Below, one piece after another: positions 31,806 to 49,948 of a stretch of DNA of 64,000 nt. The notes under the pieces were generated by a model, which was not told the DNA's origin, searched no databases, and worked only from the letters and a program-made list of their open reading frames with translations. Origin of the DNA: a bacterium (lineage in GTDB: Bacteria > SAR324 > XYD2-FULL-50-16). The DNA lies in contig JAVVEA010000012.1 in NCBI GenBank assembly GCA_032250835.1, positions 32,001 to 96,000 on the forward strand, written 5' to 3'. How positions within the stretch are numbered: position 1 is the stretch's first letter; each line of letters starts with the position of its first letter. The translations under genes were made by a program, and so were the position numbers.

Positions 31806-32315
31806 ATGATCCAACCCATCAAACTCACCCCAGCCCCCGAGCCGCCGCACCCCTCAAGGCCCCGACCAGCAGACTATGCCGACGGCTTCGCTCTAAACTT
31901 GATTGTTTCAAGTGATATCAGTGCATTGACTCTGGAGTTTTTAAAGTCGCTGCCCCTATGGGCCGCCAGACTGGTCGCGCTGCGTAATTATCTGGTTGCT
32001 TGGACTGGACTCAAGGCCCAGCCCATTAAGCGCGAACTGGACGAGGCCGATTTGGTCCCGGGGGCGGACTTGGGGCTGTTTACCTGTTATGGTTGCGGCC
32101 CTGATGAAGTCCTGCTGGGACAAAAGGAACGCCACTTGGACTTTTATACCAGCCTAAAATTGGTCCCCTTGACCGGTAGTAGCCAACTACAGGTGAGCAC
32201 TTGGGTCTATTTCCACAACCCCTGGGGTCGGGCCTACTTTTTCTTCGTCGCCCCCTGGCACCGCTGGATCGTCCGCAGCATGTTGGAGCGTCTGGCTCAT
32301 CGGCTGATTCGGTAA
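31806..32315 (+). CDS. DUF2867-like protein
   Basis: DYADGF, LRNYLV, ERHLDF and HNPWGRAYFFFVAPWHRWIV patterns. Confidence 0.7.
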   Translation: MIQPIKLTPAPEPPHPSRPRPADYADGFALNLIVSSDISALTLEFLKSLPLWAARLVALRNYLVAWTGLKAQPIKRELDEADLVPGADLGLFTCYGCGPDEVLLGQKERHLDFYTSLKLVPLTGSSQLQVSTWVYFHNPWGRAYFFFVAPWHRWIVRSMLERLAHRLIR

Positions 32316-40051: not shown

Positions 40052-41509
40052 TTACCTATCCATCAACAAAGAGAACACCTTCGAGGGTGAGCTATTCGCC
40101 TGCGACATCATTGCCGCAGCCGACTGCTTCATCAACTCGTTACGGGTATAATTGGCCATCTCCAAAGCGATGTCCGTATCCCGAATGGTTGATTCCGCAG
40201 CCACCATGTTCTCCTGGGTGGTCCGCAACGTCGCGATGTTGGTCGCCAGAGTATTCTTCTGGAACGAACCCAACCTTGAGCGCGTCTGGGACACGTCGTT
40301 AATGGCGGTGTCAATGATCTTCAGAGCGTCCTGTGCCCCTTGAGCCGTCCGGACATCGATGTCCGCAAGACTTTCAAAGGCACTTGAGTTCGCAATACCC
40401 CGGCCAACTTGGTTGGCCGACATGTTCTGAAGCGCAATCTCGACCGTTTGGCCCGCGTCCGGTCCGACCTGGAAGGTTAAGGCGTTTTGAGCCACCGTAA
40501 CCTTACCCACGTTCGTTCCTTCGGCCAGCGGCTGCACCCCTTCGGGCCGCCGGTACCGCACCGTCAAGTTGTCGGTCGAGGGGTTACCGACCAAACCGGT
40601 CATGGTATCCCCTTTTCCGAGCGTTGCCTCACCATTAATGGTTCCCATTAGGTCCGTACCCGAATTGGCGCTGCTTAGGCTACCGGCTTCTTGTGACAAG
40701 ACACCAGCGGTCGAAGAAGACACCTGGAAGGTGTACTGAGACCCATGTTGCTTATGAGCGATCCGGATCACACCCGAGTCATCACTCGTCACGTCTACCG
40801 CGAGACCCGACTTACGGGACACCTCGGCGAAGTTCTTGATCGCACTAGCCACCGTGTCCGTAGACTTGGTGGTGTAGGTGGCGGATTTACCGCCCTCTAC
40901 CAGCGTCAAGGTTTCCCCCGCTTCGACCATCTCTTTAGTCAGGGCCGTACTGCCCGACCAAGAGGCCGCGGAAGACTCTTGGGTAATGACTACGTCATAC
41001 CCGTCTTTCCCAGAAGACATGGCTTTGGTACCGGCTTCGACGAAGGACAAGCCCGCGCCGATTGAGGTACCCGAAACACCGTTTGAACCGTCCAGCAGCT
41101 TCTTAGAGCCGAATGACGTGGTTTGAGCGATCCGGTCAATGGCCGAAATCCCTCCGCTGATTTCCGTTTGGTCGGCCTCCAGCATAACCATATCGTTCGC
41201 GCCCTCGTTGGCCGCGTGGATGGACAATTGGCGCATGCCCACCAAAAGGTTGTTCACCTCTGTTAAAGCACCTTCAGCAGTTTGAACCATAGAAACCGAG
41301 GCTTCGGAGTTCTTCACAGCTTGCTCGATACTCGCGATTTGCGAGCGCATCTGTTCAGAAGCTACCAAAGACGCGGGAGCATCCCCTGCTCGGTTGATAC
41401 TCAAGCCCGACGAAAGTTTTTCAAGGGACTTTGAGACCCTATCCGAAGCTTGTGTCAGGTTCCTATGCGCGTTCAGACTGCTGGTATTATGGTTAATTCG
41501 CAAACTCAT
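40052..41509 (-). CDS. Flagellin, downstream paralog (here called fla2)
   Basis: MSLRINHN, LEKLSSGLSINRAGD, QTAEGALTE, FQVG, RSRLGSFQ, ESTIRDTD; SD AGGAGG. Confidence 0.95.
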   Translation of the reverse strand: MSLRINHNTSSLNAHRNLTQASDRVSKSLEKLSSGLSINRAGDAPASLVASEQMRSQIASIEQAVKNSEASVSMVQTAEGALTEVNNLLVGMRQLSIHAANEGANDMVMLEADQTEISGGISAIDRIAQTTSFGSKKLLDGSNGVSGTSIGAGLSFVEAGTKAMSSGKDGYDVVITQESSAASWSGSTALTKEMVEAGETLTLVEGGKSATYTTKSTDTVASAIKNFAEVSRKSGLAVDVTSDDSGVIRIAHKQHGSQYTFQVSSSTAGVLSQEAGSLSSANSGTDLMGTINGEATLGKGDTMTGLVGNPSTDNLTVRYRRPEGVQPLAEGTNVGKVTVAQNALTFQVGPDAGQTVEIALQNMSANQVGRGIANSSAFESLADIDVRTAQGAQDALKIIDTAINDVSQTRSRLGSFQKNTLATNIATLRTTQENMVAAESTIRDTDIALEMANYTRNELMKQSAAAMMSQANSSPSKVFSLLMDR

Positions 41510-41824: not shown

Positions 41825-43282
41825 TCAACCCAACAACTTCATGATCGAATTGGGCATATTGTTGGCGTGGCTGAGCATCGCCGTAGCCGACTCGACCATG
41901 ATCTGGTTTCTGGTGAAAGAAGCCATTTCCATAGCCATGTCGGTGTCGCGAATGGTCGACTCAGCCGCTACGAGATTCTCCGAAGCAATCCGCAGGTTCG
42001 ATAGATTGCTTTCCAGGGTGTTTTTCTGGAAGGCACCCAACTCACCACGGATGGACGTGATGTCGTTGATCGCTTGATCGATCAACCGCAACGAGTCCTG
42101 AGCCCCGTCGAAATTCCGTACGTCGATGTCCCGCAAGCTAGCAAAACCTGAATCGTTCTCAACCCCTTTGCCCAATGACTTAGAAGAGGTGTCAAACAAC
42201 GATACACTAGCGGTTTGGCCCTGGTTGCCCCCGATTTGGAAGGTCAACGAGTTGTTCGAAACCGCTACGGAGCCAATTTTAACGCCCCCTTCGGGGATGT
42301 CGCCATCGGTGCCGGCCCTACCCCAAAAGCCTACTTTTAGGCCTTCGACGTTTGCCGTACCACTGGAACCGGTAAGGACTTGTCCCTTACCCGAAGTGGT
42401 TTCTCCGTTGATCGATCCTTCAATGTCCTGACCATTGTCGATGGTCTGGACCGCCCCGCCTTCGTCCGAAAGCAGGCCAGAGGAAGTCGATGAGACTTGA
42501 AACTGTTGGCCGGAGCCATATTGTTTGTGGGTCACCACCAACTGGTTTTGTTCGTTTAGCGAAACTTCAACATCCAACCCTGAGTCTTTGACGGCGCTAG
42601 AAAGCCGTTGTACGGCCGTCTTCACGTTGTCGCTGCTCTCAGCTTTGAACCTTGCGATCTTCCCGCCCTCAATGATGGTAAACTCCTCGCCTGCGGCGAT
42701 GGCTTCTTCCGTTAGGGCTTGCTTGCCGACCACTTGGCTGCGGGTGGCGTTTTTGGTGACCACTACGTCGTAACCGTCGGCGTCTGAAGCTTGAGTCTTG
42801 ACGCTAGCGCCAAGAAATTCAACTCCATTACCGATGGCCACGCCGGTGGCACCATTACTTCCATCAAGCAACTTCCGTTTGCCGAACTGCGTCTGGGCAG
42901 CGATCCGATCTAAAGATTGAAGCGCGTTGGAAATCTCGAGTTGGTCCGCTTGCAGCATGACCTCGTCGTTCATCCCCTCGTTGGAAGCGTGAATAGACAA
43001 CTGCCGCATGGATACCAAGAGGCGGTTGACTTCGTTCAGCGCACCTTCGGTGGTCTGAATGACGCTGATAGCGTTCTCGTTGTTCGTTACGGCCTGGTTG
43101 ACCGAAGCGACCTGAGCACGCATCTGCTCGGAAATCACCAATTGCGCCGGGCCGTCACTGGCCCGGTTGATCTTCAATCCGCTGGAAAGCTTTTCCAGGG
43201 AGCCCCGAAGAGCCGTCTCGTTAGCGAGCAGGTTCCGGTGGGCGTTTAAGGCACTCTTGTTATGATTGATACGAACACTCAT
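41825..43282 (-). CDS. Flagellin, upstream paralog (here called fla1)
   Basis: MSVRINHN, LEKLSSGLKINRASD, QTTEGALNE, FQIG, RGELGAFQ, ESTIRDTDMA. Confidence 0.95.
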   Translation of the reverse strand: MSVRINHNKSALNAHRNLLANETALRGSLEKLSSGLKINRASDGPAQLVISEQMRAQVASVNQAVTNNENAISVIQTTEGALNEVNRLLVSMRQLSIHASNEGMNDEVMLQADQLEISNALQSLDRIAAQTQFGKRKLLDGSNGATGVAIGNGVEFLGASVKTQASDADGYDVVVTKNATRSQVVGKQALTEEAIAAGEEFTIIEGGKIARFKAESSDNVKTAVQRLSSAVKDSGLDVEVSLNEQNQLVVTHKQYGSGQQFQVSSTSSGLLSDEGGAVQTIDNGQDIEGSINGETTSGKGQVLTGSSGTANVEGLKVGFWGRAGTDGDIPEGGVKIGSVAVSNNSLTFQIGGNQGQTASVSLFDTSSKSLGKGVENDSGFASLRDIDVRNFDGAQDSLRLIDQAINDITSIRGELGAFQKNTLESNLSNLRIASENLVAAESTIRDTDMAMEMASFTRNQIMVESATAMLSHANNMPNSIMKLLG

Positions 43283-43966: not shown

Positions 43967-43987
43967 GGTCCTTTTCTCCTTTGATCA

Positions 43988-44003
43988 TGGCACAGCTTTC
44001 GCA
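43988..44003 (+). promoter_or_regulatory. Sigma54 (RpoN) -24/-12 promoter on the + strand with no downstream ORF
   Basis: TGGCAC-AGCTT-TCGCA, exact GG-N10-GC spacing. Confidence 0.6.
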
Positions 44004-44013
44004 TCTCCATAAT

Positions 44014-44150
44014 CGTCATGGTTAATTCGCAAACTCATATGCCGGATCCCCAAGGACCCCAAAAATTCGCGGTGCCGCACACGCCGCAGGGGAATCCAGA
44101 AGGATCCCGGATATGGGCAGAGTGATCCGACCAGACTCCTAATCAAAATC
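44014..44150 (+). ncRNA. Candidate trans-antisense sRNA against the fla2 translation start; ends approximate
   Basis: 44018-44040 is identical to 41489-41511 (23 of 23 nt); 44136-44143 is identical to 41515-41522; imperfect hairpin 44036-44115; sigma54 motif just upstream. Confidence 0.5.
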
Positions 44151-44255: not shown

Positions 44256-44693
44256 TTAACCTTCTACATTAACCGGCTTGACGGTACCGCGCATCTGCAC
44301 ATAATTGCTTTTGGTTTTGCGCTGTTCGATCACCGCACGCCAACCTTCGCGCAACTCGGTTAACAGAACCAAACACTCGTCGGTCAAGACCGGACTTTTT
44401 TGGATGTTCGCATCGATCAGCCGGTTGTAGATGTAGGTGTACAGCTTCTGAAGGTTAACACCGATCTCTCCGGTGCCTTCGGTATTCAAAGACCCCAACA
44501 ACTCGGCCACAATGTCCTTGGTCTTCACCAACGAGGTGTGGGCTCCTTCCAAGTCGTTTTCTTCGAGTTTGATCAAAGCTTTCTTTAAAAAGCGCACCGC
44601 GCCGTCGTACAACATCAAGATCAGGGTCGCCTGATCCTGGGTGTTTACGGCGGCCTTTTTGTAGGCCTGGCTGCCTTTGGCATAGGGGTTCAT
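44256..44693 (-). CDS. fliS: Flagellar export chaperone FliS
   Basis: AYKKAAVNT...LILMLYDGA, NLQKLYTY, LTELREGW. Confidence 0.95.
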   Translation of the reverse strand: MNPYAKGSQAYKKAAVNTQDQATLILMLYDGAVRFLKKALIKLEENDLEGAHTSLVKTKDIVAELLGSLNTEGTGEIGVNLQKLYTYIYNRLIDANIQKSPVLTDECLVLLTELREGWRAVIEQRKTKSNYVQMRGTVKPVNVEG

Positions 44694-44710: not shown

Positions 44711-47700
44711 CTACAGTTTTGCCAGTTCCTTACTCATGTAGCTTTGTTCAGCTTTTAGCTGGCCCATCTTCGAGTCAAGGCGGGCAAACTTTTCCACCAA
44801 CTTTTCGCGTTTGGCGGTCACGCGCTCTTCGAGGGTTTTCACCTCCGCTTCGTAGCCCTTGAGCTGTTCTTCAACGTTCTTGGTGTAAATCCCCAGGGCC
44901 CCGGTTTCGGCGTCCATTAGTCCGGTGATATACTCCATCACGCGGGTGCCCACCCCTTTAGTGAACACCATATTCGCTTCGGGCCCTTCGGCTAGTTGGG
45001 TGTCGGCCAGCGAGACAAATAGCTTCAACCCTTCAAAATCAGTCCCTTCGGGCCCGGATAAGATCTGACCCGAGCCGTCCATCTCGATGCCGTTGATGCT
45101 GCCCTGAACATTTTTACCCGCCGCCCCTTCGCCGCCCATCAAGAAATGCGGTTTGAGGTTGTCCACTTCCTTGGGCCGGACCTCGATGGCGCTTCTCGAA
45201 CCGGTCAGGTTCGAGCGGATCGTGATTTTGCCTTGGTCCTGAGTCACGGCTATGTTCATGCGCTTAAGCGCTTTATCTTCCAAAATCTTTTTCTGTAATT
45301 CCTTAGCCAGCATCTCGACGCTGTCATAGGTCTTCTTTTCTAACTCGATCGGTTCGGACTCGCGTCCGTTGACCTTTAAAAAGATCACGTTATTGGTGTC
45401 GTCGACCACCACGGGCTGCGTAAAGGTTTGGGTGCTATAATACCCTTTGCTCGCCGCTTGGGTGATGTCGATGGCAAAGCCGTCTGCACCGCTCAACTTG
45501 GTTTTCTCGGTAGACGAGAGATAACTGATCGCGCTGTTCTCGCTGGTGCCATTGCTGCGGAACAGGTTGGCTACCTTAGAGAGGTCGTCATTGACCGCTT
45601 GGTTCAGTTTGTCTTCGTCTACAATAATGGTCCCTTCACCACCAATTTTGAGGCCAATGGCCATCAGCAAGTTGGCGTCTTCGGGCAACCCGCTCACCGG
45701 GTTGATGAAGATCCGCGACATCTCTTGTTGGATCCGCGGAAGGTTCCGGTCGCCCTGCAACGGGGCCGCCTCATCCTTATCCTTGTCGTACTTGATCACC
45801 TCTCTAAAGAAGGTGAGCATTTCGTTGTACGAATCCACAAATTCTTTGACGCCGGCGATGGCCTTTTCGGTATCGCCTTTGATGCTGATGGTCACCGGCT
45901 TTTCGGAGGTGGCCAAAAGGTTCAACTTGACCCCATCAATCACGTCGTCCAGTTCGTTGGTGGCGCTGGTGATCAGCAAACCGCCGCCCAATTCGGTCGC
46001 CCCTAGCCGAACCTCAGCATCTTGGGGCGGTTGGATGACCGGGCTGAAGGTGCGGAAGGTGAAGCTATCGGTTTCAAAGATACTCCCTTCGCCCAACTGC
46101 AAGCTCAAGCCCGAGTCGAAGGCTAGGGCCGCTCCGGCTTGGTAGTGGTCGCCACCTACCTTCAAAACGCCCGAATTGCCTTCATTGTCTTCCCATTTCA
46201 TCTCCAAGCCCTTGGTGGTCCCGATGGTACCGGAGCCCAGGGCGGTGAAGGTATAGACCTTGGATTCATAGCCCTCAAAGTTACCTACGATCTGCTTTTC
46301 TACGTTGCTGACCCTAGGTCCTTTCGGAGCCGTCGAAGCCTTTGCGCCACCACCAAAACCGGTCGAGGCGGCATCGTCTTCTACCTCAGGGCCGATCCAA
46401 CTGCTCAAATTTTTAATCTGCCCACCTTCTACCTGATCCGACTCGGGCAACCACCAATAGTTGGCCGTCGATTCAGACTGGCATTCGAAGGTAGCATAAC
46501 TGCCTTCGTTTAGCAGACCGGGCTTCAACTCGATCTCTAGGCCTCGGCCCAAGCTCATTTTGGTGCCCGGTTGGTAACCGTCCCCGACGAAGATAGTGCC
46601 GGAGAAACCATTTTCACTGGTCACCTCAATCTTTAAATCACCTTGGCCGATCTGACCGGAGCCCACCACCTTCATGGTGAAGCGGTCGTCTTCTGCTCCG
46701 TCATATTGGCCGGTGACGATCGGTCCACCTTCGGTGGCCTGCTTGCCCCAACTGGCCGGTTGTTGGATCGCCGGGGCCCGCTCTTCATCAGACTTCCACC
46801 AATAGATTTCCGGTTCCTGTGGCTTAGCCTTGGCTTCGAAGCTGTCGTTAACGATCACTTCCCCATCGGTCATCACCAACTGGATCCCGTCGACTACCTC
46901 CACCGGCTCTCCGGGGGTGTAGTTAAAACTGCCCAAGTCCAGGTAGCCATGGCGTCCCTGGTTGTCTTCCCAGCGCACCCTTAAGGTTTCGCTAACCCCG
47001 ACCGCGCCGGTGTTGACCACCGTAAACTTCAGGTCTAAGGGTTCGGTGCCCGTATAGGTCCCGATCAATTCCGGGATCGCCGTCGAAGCGCCGGTTCCGG
47101 TCGCCTTGGAATCTGCTTTGTCTCCTGCCGCAGCAATCCCTTTCCACTTGCTGGGCTGGTTGTAATAGGGGTCGAAGGTCGGCGAGGGGATTCCCTCTTC
47201 GCCTTGCAGTTCGACCTGGGTAAAGATTTCCCCATCTTTGCCCGTCATCTTGCTGGTCAACACGATCTGATAGGGCGCTTCTTTGTTGCCCGTCTTGATG
47301 ATGTTGGCCTCTACCTCAGCGTCCAGCGCGTTGATCGCGTCGGCAAAGCCTTGCACTGTATTGTTGGTGTCATCGACCACAAAACTTTCGGAGGCATTTT
47401 CGCCCACCGTTAACGTAACCTTTCCTTTACCAATCTGGGCGTCCTTTTCGGCAAAGCCCTGGCTGGCAATCTGGTGGTTTAAGGCCAGCTTATCGACCAC
47501 CAAGGTATGTTTGCCCGGCTTCGCTCCACTGGTGGCGCTGGCGGCGACGATCTCGGGGTCCGAGCTATCGACCAGCTTGCCTTCCCACATGGACTTCTTC
47601 GAGAGCACCTCGGACTTATCCTTTACCTGCTCAATCAAAGCCTTGACCTGCTTCCAGGCCTCCAACTCGACGGTCTTCTCAGTGGCCCGGCCCTGGATCG

Positions 47701-47806
47701 GCTCGATCTTCTTTTTTTCGACCTCAACCAATTTTTCGATGATGTTCTTGACGTCCAAACCGGAGCCAAGCCCTTGCATCATATTGGGTGAAATTTCACC
47801 AGCCAT
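44711..47806 (-). CDS. fliD: Flagellar filament cap FliD, unusually long (about 1030 aa)
   Basis: GLGSGLDVKNIIEKLVEVEK N-terminus; QDA...TNELDDVIDGV, FVDSYN, PLQGD; C-terminal KFARLDS; ATG at 47806 preferred. Confidence 0.92.
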   Translation of the reverse strand: MAGEISPNMMQGLGSGLDVKNIIEKLVEVEKKKIEPIQGRATEKTVELEAWKQVKALIEQVKDKSEVLSKKSMWEGKLVDSSDPEIVAASATSGAKPGKHTLVVDKLALNHQIASQGFAEKDAQIGKGKVTLTVGENASESFVVDDTNNTVQGFADAINALDAEVEANIIKTGNKEAPYQIVLTSKMTGKDGEIFTQVELQGEEGIPSPTFDPYYNQPSKWKGIAAAGDKADSKATGTGASTAIPELIGTYTGTEPLDLKFTVVNTGAVGVSETLRVRWEDNQGRHGYLDLGSFNYTPGEPVEVVDGIQLVMTDGEVIVNDSFEAKAKPQEPEIYWWKSDEERAPAIQQPASWGKQATEGGPIVTGQYDGAEDDRFTMKVVGSGQIGQGDLKIEVTSENGFSGTIFVGDGYQPGTKMSLGRGLEIELKPGLLNEGSYATFECQSESTANYWWLPESDQVEGGQIKNLSSWIGPEVEDDAASTGFGGGAKASTAPKGPRVSNVEKQIVGNFEGYESKVYTFTALGSGTIGTTKGLEMKWEDNEGNSGVLKVGGDHYQAGAALAFDSGLSLQLGEGSIFETDSFTFRTFSPVIQPPQDAEVRLGATELGGGLLITSATNELDDVIDGVKLNLLATSEKPVTISIKGDTEKAIAGVKEFVDSYNEMLTFFREVIKYDKDKDEAAPLQGDRNLPRIQQEMSRIFINPVSGLPEDANLLMAIGLKIGGEGTIIVDEDKLNQAVNDDLSKVANLFRSNGTSENSAISYLSSTEKTKLSGADGFAIDITQAASKGYYSTQTFTQPVVVDDTNNVIFLKVNGRESEPIELEKKTYDSVEMLAKELQKKILEDKALKRMNIAVTQDQGKITIRSNLTGSRSAIEVRPKEVDNLKPHFLMGGEGAAGKNVQGSINGIEMDGSGQILSGPEGTDFEGLKLFVSLADTQLAEGPEANMVFTKGVGTRVMEYITGLMDAETGALGIYTKNVEEQLKGYEAEVKTLEERVTAKREKLVEKFARLDSKMGQLKAEQSYMSKELAKL

Positions 47807-48034
47807 ATTGAAACCTATCCTTGAGAAGGTCGGAACCGGCAAATAGTTCCGCAGTCTTTAACTAGAGACTCCGCTCGACCCAACGGATTAAACTCCGTCG
47901 TAGGGACCTCCTTTTATTGCTACCCGCCGTAATCAAAGGCGGACAGGTTCAGGAGCGGACCTGCCTTGCCATCGGGCAAGAGGTCCCTGAGGTTGATTGG
48001 GCCATCAAAGGCCCTAGAATCCCAAGGATAGGTT

Positions 48035-48051
48035 TACAATTCTTGTTCCAA
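48035..48051 (-). promoter_or_regulatory. Sigma54-like promoter upstream of fliD
   Basis: Minus strand TTGGAAC-AAGAA-TTGTA; correct spacing with GT instead of GC at -12. Confidence 0.45.
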
Positions 48052-48059
48052 CTTGCCTT

Positions 48060-48385
48060 TACACTCCTTCTTTCTTTTTCGCCCGCCTGCTTAAGCTCCG
48101 GCGTTGGGGCCTAAGAGGATCAAGGCGATTACCGTTTAGGGGTGGCCGCGAGGGCCACTGGCTCCTCTGGTGAGCCCGATCATACGGGCCAGACCACTCG
48201 CCTCAGGCGAAATGCTGGCCACCCCATTAAGTTCCCCCTTTTAAAGGGGCTAAAGATTTGGCCTCCTACAGGCTGATAGGCGCACACCCCAGCCTGCAGG
48301 AGCCGACCCGAGGGGGTCGGTGTCATGGTGCTTTCGCACCCAATCTAACGGGCGGAACCTAGCCCTTTGGCTTAAGTCCTTGCCT
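48060..48385 (-). ncRNA. Large structured non-coding RNA or leader domain
   Basis: Dense nested stems, GAAA tetraloop and G-U pair on the minus strand; starts just downstream of a sigma28 promoter; no minus-strand ORF of 60 aa or more. Confidence 0.45.
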
Positions 48386-48387
48386 CC

Positions 48388-48414
48388 TTATCGGCGGCTC
48401 CTTTTAGAACTTGA
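48388..48414 (-). promoter_or_regulatory. Sigma28 promoter (proximal) upstream of fliD
   Basis: Minus strand TCAA-N15-GCCGATAA, perfect -10 element. Confidence 0.8.
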
Positions 48415-48543
48415 GCCTTTTTTCTTAATTTTCACTCGAACCCGCTGGGGCCTGCGTCCTAAGATGATCCCTAAGATCCATAACATCTCATCCTCCGTTG
48501 GGAGTTCTTTTTCGATTTGGCGCCAAGGATTGCGCTTGCTTCC

Positions 48544-48570
48544 CTATCGGTTGCTCTGAGCTTTAACTTA
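48544..48570 (-). promoter_or_regulatory. Sigma28 promoter (distal) upstream of fliD
   Basis: Minus strand TAAG-N15-ACCGATAG with AT-rich upstream sequence. Confidence 0.6.
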
Positions 48571-48697
48571 ACTATATTTTTTATTTTTTAGTTACAGTTA
48601 GTTGGATTTGATTATTGAGCTTGGGCTTGCCAGAATGAAGCGGTTTTGATTTATATATGACTAACTTGATCAGTTTACTCATCTATAAAAGGGCGGT

Positions 48698-49948
48698 ATG
48701 GAACTTTGGTTGACTCTGCTGGCGGTGGCTCTGGTGATCGGTCTGTTTTTGGTGACCTCCTGGCGGCCAGACCTGATTTTGGGTTGCGCCATTGGCCTGT
48801 TGGTGCTGACCGGCACCTTGACGCCCGCTGAGGCCCTGAAGGGGTTTTCTAATCAGGCCGTGCTGACCATTGCCCTTTTGTATCTGGTGGTCGGTGGGTT
48901 GCAGCATAGCGGTGGCATGCTCTGGCTCTCGCGCCACCTGTTAGGCAGTCCGGCGAGTGAATGGCGGGGCCGGTTGCGGATGATCACCCCGGTGATCGGC
49001 CTGAGCGCCTTCATGAACAACACCCCGGTGGTGGCCTTGATGATCCCGGCGGTACAAAACTGGTGTAAGCGGTTGCAGTGGGACCCAGCTAGGTTTTTAT
49101 TGCCCCTCAGTTATGCCTCTATCTTAGGGGGAATCTGCAGCCTGATCGGAACCAGCACCAACCTGGTGGTTGCTGGGCTGGCGTTAGAGGAAGGTTTGAC
49201 CGAAATCGGCCTGTTTGACGTCACCCCGGTGGGCCTGCCCTGCGCGGCGGTCGGACTGGTCTTCTTGATTTTTTTGGGGCCCCGGTTGCTGCCGAAGCGG
49301 AACCTAACGCCGGAGCTACGCCCCATTTCTTGGCCCCAGGACCCCAAAGAACCGAATTTAAATTACCGGGGTGCCCTCGCCCTAGGTTTGTTGGCGGCGA
49401 TGGTATTGCTGGCCGCTACAGGGCTTTTGGGGATGTTTTATGCCGCTTTGGGCACCGCGTTGGCGATGCTGGTCCTGCGGTTTTTGAACTTCAAGGCAGC
49501 GGCCCGGTCGGTAGATTGGTCTGTTTTAATCGCTATCGCCCTCTCCTTTGGCCTAAGCGAAGCGATCAAAAAACATGGCTTAGACCGGATGGTGGCCCAA
49601 GGGCTGATGGACAGTGTGGGGCAGGACCCCTTCTGGGTGTTGGTGGTCTTTTTCTTGGCCACCTCCTTGTTGACTGAGTTGGTCACCAACAATGCCACCG
49701 CCGTGCTGATGTTCCCCATCGCCCTTTCGGCAGCGGCGCAATTGGGCGTTAGCCCCCTGCCCTTTATCTTTGCCGTGATGATCGCCGCCTCATCCAGCTT
49801 TTCTTCCCCCATGGGCTACCAAACCAACCTAATGGTCTACGGCCCCGGCGGCTACCGATTCTCCGACTATTTGCGGCTGGGGGTTCCGATGAATTTACTG
49901 ATCGGGGCCACGGCGTTGTGCCTCTTGCCCTGGCTCTATCCCTTCTAA
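48698..49948 (+). CDS. SLC13/CitMHS family permease lacking TrkA-C domains
   Basis: SAFMNNTPVV, LIGTSTNL, TELVTNNA, SPMGYQTNLMVYGPGGYRFSD. Confidence 0.88.
   Translation: MELWLTLLAVALVIGLFLVTSWRPDLILGCAIGLLVLTGTLTPAEALKGFSNQAVLTIALLYLVVGGLQHSGGMLWLSRHLLGSPASEWRGRLRMITPVIGLSAFMNNTPVVALMIPAVQNWCKRLQWDPARFLLPLSYASILGGICSLIGTSTNLVVAGLALEEGLTEIGLFDVTPVGLPCAAVGLVFLIFLGPRLLPKRNLTPELRPISWPQDPKEPNLNYRGALALGLLAAMVLLAATGLLGMFYAALGTALAMLVLRFLNFKAAARSVDWSVLIAIALSFGLSEAIKKHGLDRMVAQGLMDSVGQDPFWVLVVFFLATSLLTELVTNNATAVLMFPIALSAAAQLGVSPLPFIFAVMIAASSSFSSPMGYQTNLMVYGPGGYRFSDYLRLGVPMNLLIGATALCLLPWLYPF

Follow-up and report, generated by a model that had tools for sequence, protein, structure and literature searches.

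A covarying long-range helix in the fliD leader of SAR324-type bacteria, predicted to sequester the ribosome-binding site in transcripts from upstream sigma28 promoters

The locus described here lies in a SAR324-type genome (G000; 3.66 Mb in 43 contigs, 54.7% G+C). The whole stretch of DNA that was analysed, a 64-kb segment (positions 32,001 to 96,000) of contig JAVVEA010000012.1, is called the window; all coordinates are those of the window, and the fliD mRNA is read from its minus strand, on which all features given below also lie unless stated otherwise. The gene fliD (44711..47806; start codon ATG at 47806-47804) encodes the filament cap protein of 1031 amino acids (Pfam FliD_N 1.4e-18, FliD_C 2.8e-42), and is followed after 17 nucleotides (nt) by fliS (44256..44693; Pfam FliS 9.2e-36), with a Shine-Dalgarno (SD) sequence of its own, GGAGGAAAC-AUG, and then by two flagellin genes (41825-43282 and 40052-41509). 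Upstream of fliD, an 891-nt gap separates this gene from a divergent CitMHS-type transporter gene (48698-49948, plus strand). Inside this gap is located the leader element under study, consisting of a sigma54-like motif and a long-range helix, P1, which joins the sequence directly downstream of the motif to the ribosome-binding region of fliD. The genome also encodes rpoN, fliA and csrA, the last adjoining flagellar genes.

By repeat search, two inverted-repeat arms of 16 nt, 94% complementary, were detected at 47811-47826 and 48020-48035 with 193 nt between them. Their core is a perfect 13-mer (47811-47823 / 48023-48035), and the inverted repeat of 13 base pairs (bp) that an earlier note on this DNA had described was thus reproduced. 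Based on the sequence, the repeat search, the predicted fold and covariation, the 5' arm of P1 was assigned to the anti-SD sequence UUGUAAACCUAUCCUUGGGA (48020..48039, with the 13-nt core at 48035-48023), and the 3' arm to the ribosome-binding region UCUCAAGGAUAGGUUUCAA (47808..47826), which ends 1 nt before the AUG. The same note had taken the downstream arm for the fliD ribosome-binding region, in agreement with the mRNA strand, which reads CAAGGAUAGGUUUCAAU-AUG at this position. The alignment of FliD with its relatives begins at residue 1. The anti-SD proper, CUAUCCU, has GGAUAG of the ribosome site as its partner and sits upstream of the transcription start predicted from the sigma54-like motif. 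Between the arms (47827..48019), about 190 nt fold into nested hairpins, including a three-hairpin domain closed by 47988-47980 / 47910-47902, although the sequence of this interior is not conserved between genera. The closing stem of the domain, another element of the earlier note, was recovered by the repeat search as the 9-mer pair AGGGACCTC/GAGGTCCCT (47902-47910 / 47980-47988).

The folding energy of the RNA from 47790-48045 (256 nt) was -105.9 kcal/mol (z = -6.25), and none of 200 shuffled sequences folded as well. The full 607-nt leader expected from the upstream sigma28 promoter of G000 keeps P1 in its fold, with z = -8.9 (20 shuffles). In the clade of G000 the helix lengthens to 19 pairs (19-20), taking in UUG of the -12 box of the motif and CAA just before the AUG, while it measures 11-13 bp in most relatives. 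A scan of 47000-49500 with the covariance models of Rfam 15 gave no relevant match; the two hits at E <= 1 (0.33 and 0.55) are both inside fliD and far below the gathering score. A search for a second copy of the leader in its own genome gave none, the next best match to the 894-nt query having E = 0.126, and the reading of the leader as a repeat or mobile element was ruled out for this reason.

Conservation was examined with two sets of leaders. BLAST of the intergenic region against 40 relatives gave only two conserved islands, both shared with five further genera of the family: the motif with the 5' arm, and the SD arm with the fliD start. The first set was collected with a pattern made from the motif and the 5' arm, which gave 14 loci in a species-genome collection (11 of SAR324 type with fliD downstream, and 3 chance hits in other phyla) and 17 loci in metagenomes (including 2 chance hits and 1 incomplete locus). 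In the alignment of the 20 distinct leaders from both sources (A1), selected through the 5' arm itself, RNAalifold gave the long-range helix as the main consensus feature, and each of the 20 has P1 in its minimum-energy fold. Pairing was found in 97.3% of the 220 cells of the 11-bp core, as against 37-65% with the partner slid. In the mRNA sense, 32 cells of this core are G.U and 6 are unpaired, and none is A.C, as would fit pairing within RNA of the coding strand rather than two DNA sites.

The second set was gathered by the first 130 residues of FliD, independently of the repeat. A match was obtained in 73 of 88 genomes of the phylum, including 17 of the 18 relatives within the family, the relative without a match being 90% complete; G000 and these 17 relatives make up alignment A3. 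Standard pairs fill 90.4% of the 239 cells of the 16-pair helix in A3, compared with 37-56% after sliding the partner by 1-3 columns. Seven pairs (21 cells) are altered on both sides, against 3.7 +/- 1.1 pairs in shuffled alignments (reached in 1 of 500), and the covariation score was 0.259 against 0.163 (reached in none of 500). These shuffle tests are inflated by relatedness, but the slid controls retain the relatedness and score far lower. Compensations within the core include CCTGG/CCAGG (G012), CTATCCG/CGGATAG (G001), TTATCCTT/AAGGGTAA (G005) and TTCTAT/ATAGAA (G017). For a helix with the ribosome site, the segment next to the motif beats every interior control segment in 15 of the 18 genomes; the other three are G004, where the helix is bulged, G008, where the two tie, and G002, which has no clear partner. 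The helix in the fliD leader is confirmed as conserved, with compensatory changes, in all 18 family genomes, though the partner arm of G002 is unclear. Selection on the helix is supported, and it very probably sequesters the ribosome site of fliD.

Upstream of the motif, a sigma28-type promoter, TCAAGTTC-N11-GCCGATAA, is located at 48388..48414, with a predicted start at about 48381-48379 and a leader of about 575 nt that includes the anti-SD arm. It matches the consensus of sigma28 (FliA) promoters, TAAAGTTT-N11-GCCGATAA, at 14 of 16 positions; the family's own consensus is CTAAAGTTTT-N11-GCCGATAAGG, and a like promoter precedes the flgM-like gene in G000. Two sigma28 sites had been proposed for this region. 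The other, TTAAGTTA-N12-ACCGATAG at 48544..48571, is the weaker, its spacer being one base over and each box agreeing at 6 of 8 positions. Among the 20 leaders of the first set, a near-consensus sigma28 promoter was found upstream of the motif in 17 by regular expression and in two more, with ACCGATAA, by eye. Such a promoter precedes the motif in 16 of the 17 relatives of the FliD-collected set, while for G006 none was found within 700 nt. In 9 of the 17 it is at most 90 nt from the motif, and the RNA would start about 35-60 nt before the 5' arm. Since these promoters are upstream of the motif, their transcripts contain the anti-SD arm, as had been predicted for G000, and it is highly likely that sigma28 RNAs carry the helix. 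The part of the sigma28 leader upstream of the motif (48060-48381) is densely structured as well, although not conserved in other genera; a second module within it has a 9-bp closing pair (48139-48147 / 48217-48225) and an interior of 69 nt, equal to that of the module inside the helix.

The sigma54-like motif, TGGAAC-AAGAA-TTGTA (48035..48050), has GG at 48049-48048 and G at 48037, and T replaces C at the -12 position (48036). It has the geometry of a sigma54 promoter, with TGG and TTG boxes and with 10 nt separating the GG from the G in the -12 element, and from this geometry a start is predicted at about 48024-48021, about 12 nt after the -12 base. Sigma70 and extracytoplasmic-function sigma readings were rejected on account of misfitting spacers. 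All 18 family genomes have the form TGGAAY-N5-TTG(T/A)A, at a distance of about 190-256 nt from the ATG and always directly 5' of the arm, so that the spacing and position noted earlier for G000 hold throughout the family, whereas the -12 C of the consensus does not appear. Pairing does not account for the invariant bases of the motif, because the AA that follows TTGW is mismatched as A.A in 8-10 of the 20 leaders. In these respects, and in its place before fliD in other families (see below), the motif behaves as a promoter, which is not proof, and its assignment as an active sigma54 promoter is the weak link of the interpretation given below. The sole other flagellar promoter of G000 with TTGAA precedes a fliJ-like gene. 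An intergenic copy, TGGAAC-N5-TTGAA (G000:C12:56139, plus strand), was noted 114 nt before a gene judged by eye, and without a family search, to be lytic transglycosylase-like; lytic transglycosylases are a class of enzymes used by some bacteria for passage of the flagellar rod.

In all 20 leaders, the base before TGGAA completes a start codon (ATG, TTG or GTG, never CTG), and a stop follows 1-4 codons past XTG-GAA. The resulting mini open reading frame (mini-ORF) of G000 (48034-48051) reads UUG GAA CAA GAA UUG UAA and overlaps at its end with the first bases of the 5' arm, and a ribosome terminating there would cover the anti-SD arm. The mini-ORF may be incidental, arising from the A/T-rich spacer and TTGTAA.

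Beyond the family of G000 (f1), fliD is also preceded by TGGAAY-N5-TTGAA in three further families of the phylum, namely in 8 of 9 loci of f7 (the ninth having TGGTCT), 21 of 22 of f6 and the single locus of f3. Many f6 loci show a helix between the region of the TTGAAG box and a conserved CUUCAA near the start codon, reaching 11-14 bp in G077 and G038, with one compensated pair in G087 versus G028; the difference in accessibility is small (0.36 versus 0.48), and a promoter-adjacent helix in f6 is suggestive. In the f6 leaders (L086-L106), a co-directional gene whose C-terminus is flagellin-like has its stop codon no more than 2 nt before the motif, no terminator lying between, and read-through into fliD would be the default.

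A second conserved sequence, GGAACTATTTGCC in G000 (47838..47850), is located 20-60 nt before the fliD start. Its form in f1 is GGWAnnTTTTGCC, and a palindrome GGCA-N5-TGCC, with an A/T-rich N5, is present before fliD in all four families examined (including the leaders L076-L107), with flanking stems that covary in f7. Readings of GGWAnnTTTTGCC as a second sigma54 promoter (the GG-to-GC spacing being 8, not 10) and as a proximal sigma28 promoter (without the TAAAGTTT box and the GATAA of the family consensus) were rejected, and a uniform hairpin in f1 is unsupported, local folds varying among the loci. The block may serve to bind an enhancer-binding protein, or it may form a small RNA hairpin. 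The genome has at least one enhancer-binding-protein-like gene, and the palindrome, a candidate site only, lies 90-210 bp downstream of the motif. Similar blocks of G000 are found just before fliE, about 55 nt before the sigma54-like promoter of flgB and before the first flagellin gene, with sites at G000:C39:128062 and at about 43375 of the window. Genome-wide scans for the block gave 13 and 8 hits, 2 of each being near flagellar genes, which is suggestive and post hoc.

Based on these observations, we propose that the fliD leader may act as a translational gate specific to the transcript isoform. Transcripts from the sigma28 promoter or promoters (from about 48381 in G000) would carry the 5' arm UUGUAAACCUAUCCUUGGGA, which would pair across the self-folding spacer of about 190 nt with the SD region UCUCAAGGAUAGGUUUCAA, so that the 30S ribosomal subunit would be largely shut out of fliD. 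The nested promoter, of sigma54 architecture, would provide the anti-SD arm itself through its -12 box and the next 11 bases. RNA started at about 48024-48021 would keep only UGGGA of the arm and leave AGGAUAGG of the ribosome site free. FliD synthesis would then rely mainly on RNA started at the nested promoter, and the sigma28 read-in transcripts would be translationally insulated for fliD.

Folding of long and short transcripts, as the earlier note had suggested, gave results in agreement with this proposal. In the 20 leaders, the SD 6-mer was unpaired with a mean probability of 0.03 in RNA starting 30 nt before the motif and of 0.41 in RNA from the predicted start. In the FliD-collected set, the region from -15 to +3 was unpaired at 0.25 in the long and 0.46 in the short RNA, the value being higher for the short RNA in 16 of 18 genomes. 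In the minimum-energy fold of the short RNA of G000, only UGGGA pairs, with UCUCA, and AGGAUAGG is unpaired. The promoter choice claimed in the earlier note is partly supported, in that the helix, its inclusion in sigma28 transcripts, the position of the motif and the folding agree with it. We give a probability of about one half to the full switch, in which a start at the nested promoter removes the arm; we infer the activity of the motif as a sigma54 promoter, the position of the start, the timing, and how large the effect on translation is. A wider version is put forward with more reserve than confidence. In this version the fliD promoter DNA would be dual-coded across the family, a second family perhaps having a shifted form of this, with the stretch from -12 to +1 doubling as the anti-SD arm; sigma28 read-in RNAs would be insulated, only nested-promoter RNAs would make the cap, and different FliD:FliS ratios at two stages of assembly would be possible.

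Several observations weigh against this gate. The -12 base is T or A at every locus and never the consensus C, and the other sigma54-like flagellar promoters of G000 are of a different form, TGGCCC-N5-TTGCA (flgB), TGGCCT-N5-TTGCA (fliF-like) and TGGCAT-N5-ATGCA (flgF). The sequence TGGAA[CT]-N5-TTG[TAC]A occurs 8 times in the genome of G000, about as often as a rough estimate of chance, and therefore no promoter class is visible beyond fliD. With their spacing of 11 nt, the TGGAA and TTGAA halves might just as well form direct repeats bound by a response regulator. The predicted release of the ribosome site in short RNAs is partial (about 0.4-0.5 unpaired) and not all-or-none, and it is absent in L028 and L034 among the 20 leaders and in G008 and G002 among the 18 genomes; G002 keeps the motif without a clear partner arm. 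In G000 alone the opposite strand folds nearly equally well (z = -5.83), and since the two strands fold nearly alike, the helix is assigned to the fliD mRNA because of the asymmetry between G.U and A.C across the leaders. No comparable helix was found in f7 by a gapless search with approximate start-codon calls, and of the 16 f6 loci that could be scored, only 9 have a helix better than the interior controls, 6 of 22 having been skipped by the start-codon or motif filter. The gate gives no reason for keeping a sigma28 promoter whose fliD message is silent. The silent long transcripts could possibly still deliver fliS, as was also claimed earlier, because fliS has its own SD; this is doubtful because the untranslated 3.1-kb fliD invites Rho-dependent polarity, a stretch of this kind being exposed to both polarity and decay.

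Part of this evidence would also be expected if the helix were real and the motif were no nested promoter, all fliD mRNAs being sigma28-born with a closed helix that a trans-acting factor or a condition opens. The opening might be due to a protein bound to single-stranded UGGAAY...UUGWAA beside the helix, to CsrA/FliW acting at GGA motifs, to a secretion chaperone, to temperature, or to a ribosome translating the mini-ORF of 2-5 codons. This explanation, the main rival and less likely than the gate in our estimate, agrees with the missing -12 C in all loci, with the restriction of the motif to fliD in G000, and with csrA next to the flagellar genes. The SD arm CAAGGAU holds AAGGA, and resembles the CsrA consensus; the GGA of the SD is paired in the closed helix. 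The adjacency of motif and arm is also expected if a factor binds there to melt the helix, and at the motif of every f1 locus an ATG, TTG or GTG, with GAA as the next codon, opens a frame that reaches a stop within 1-4 codons; the mini-ORFs, however, are mostly without a well-spaced SD, and their stops follow from the A/T-rich spacer and TTGTAA. What favours the nested promoter over on-demand opening is the exact sigma54 geometry of the motif (GG-N10-G, with TGG and TTG boxes), its retention before f7 fliD without an adjacent helix having been found, which points to a function independent of the helix, and its place in f6, 2 nt past the end of a co-directional gene, where promoters usually lie. 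Even if the motif is no promoter, the SD-sequestering helix is still a new family-wide element of the fliD leader, needing some opener.

A role of the helix in RNA processing or stability, either as a compact 5' domain protecting the leader or as a double-strand nuclease site that releases a translatable fliD mRNA, is improbable. The 19-20 pairs of the G000 clade and the strong fold of its 607-nt leader would suit such a role, but the 11-13 bp of most relatives are short for RNase III, and the conserved feature is the pairing with the SD core GGAUAG and not the length. Least probable is that the arms are inverted DNA operators of one repressor looping about 200 bp to close the motif and the fliD start region, since, although one arm overlaps a promoter-like motif, the distance between the arms is fairly constant in the family (about 190-215 bp) and a palindromic block lies between them, the transition mismatches of the core are all G.U in the mRNA sense and the arms co-vary in several independent lineages, unlike a fixed protein specificity.

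Two further observations concern the genes of the locus. FliD is unusually long throughout the phylum (about 1020-1110 amino acids), with an extra N-terminal extension in f7 and a TTG start in f6. Between fliS and the flagellin genes, a short frame at 43985-44038 shares its first 21 bases with the flagellin gene at 41509 (MSLRINH...) and stops after 17 codons, apparently a remnant of a flagellin 5' end.

For flagellar assembly, very few cap subunits and much flagellin chaperone are needed, and fliD and fliS, which differ in this way, share an operon. For sigma54/sigma28 hierarchies, most explanations of the stoichiometry invoke transcription alone. A cis-acting helix with a 5' arm built from promoter sequence would make translation depend directly on which sigma factor is chosen, and the proposed gate, if true, would be the first example of translation specific to sigma-factor isoforms in a flagellar hierarchy and with an enhancer-dependent promoter. 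The element, of about 250 nt, is compact and testable as a device for the translational insulation of nested promoters. In a literature search, no description of this fliD leader was found, and a search on SAR324 flagellar sigma factors gave nothing on the topic among the matches listed, as judged by titles and abstracts. The type of mechanism is already known; what is new is the sigma28/sigma54 pair, the flagellar setting, the use of a stretch of an enhancer-dependent promoter as the arm, and the lineage.

Among known systems, some sigma54 flagellar promoters of Caulobacter have downstream enhancers (ftr elements), and the palindrome GGCA-N5-TGCC, likewise downstream of a sigma54-type flagellar start, might be read in the same way. 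Caulobacter FlbT acts on flagellin mRNA at its 5' untranslated region. In Campylobacter, according to the part of the report consulted, CsrA-FliW acts on flagellin mRNA (PMC4894983). As in these two systems, so far as the consulted part describes the second, translation of a late flagellar gene would be set at the 5' leader and ribosome site of fliD, and csrA is present in G000; unlike the proteins acting in trans on flagellin mRNA, the fliD feature is a helix in cis. Closer in logic is the fold-back inhibition of the IS10 and IS50 transposases, in which a sequence lying upstream of the element's own start pairs with the ribosome site in read-through RNAs and only RNAs from the element's own promoter are translated. 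The fliD leader would follow the same logic, translational insulation of read-in transcripts, but whereas IS10 and IS50 guard a mobile element against outside promoters, the chromosomal fliD would be insulated from the sigma28 promoters of its own regulon.

The nearest counterpart is found in Bacillus subtilis, where, in the consulted part of the report by McCormick et al. (2021, PMC8208050), sigmaB transcripts of stress genes at operon ends start inside SD-sequestering structures of long sigmaA isoforms and, being without the upstream arm, are translated, the starts and structures having been measured by Rend-seq and DMS-MaPseq. According to the same part of that report, the arrangement is conserved among relatives, and the authors proposed its possible extension to other alternative sigma factors (PMC8208050). 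As in those sigmaB/sigmaA pairs, the long isoform of fliD holds an upstream arm that pairs with the SD, and the predicted short start lies inside the structure. In contrast to them, so far as described there, the fliD pair would consist of sigma28 (long) and a sigma54-like promoter (short) within the flagellar hierarchy, its starts are predicted here and were measured there, and its arm occupies bases that separate the -12 box from +1 in a promoter of enhancer-dependent type. If the proposed gate is true, the principle known from Bacillus sigmaB would thus be extended to motility genes and to an uncultured phylum.

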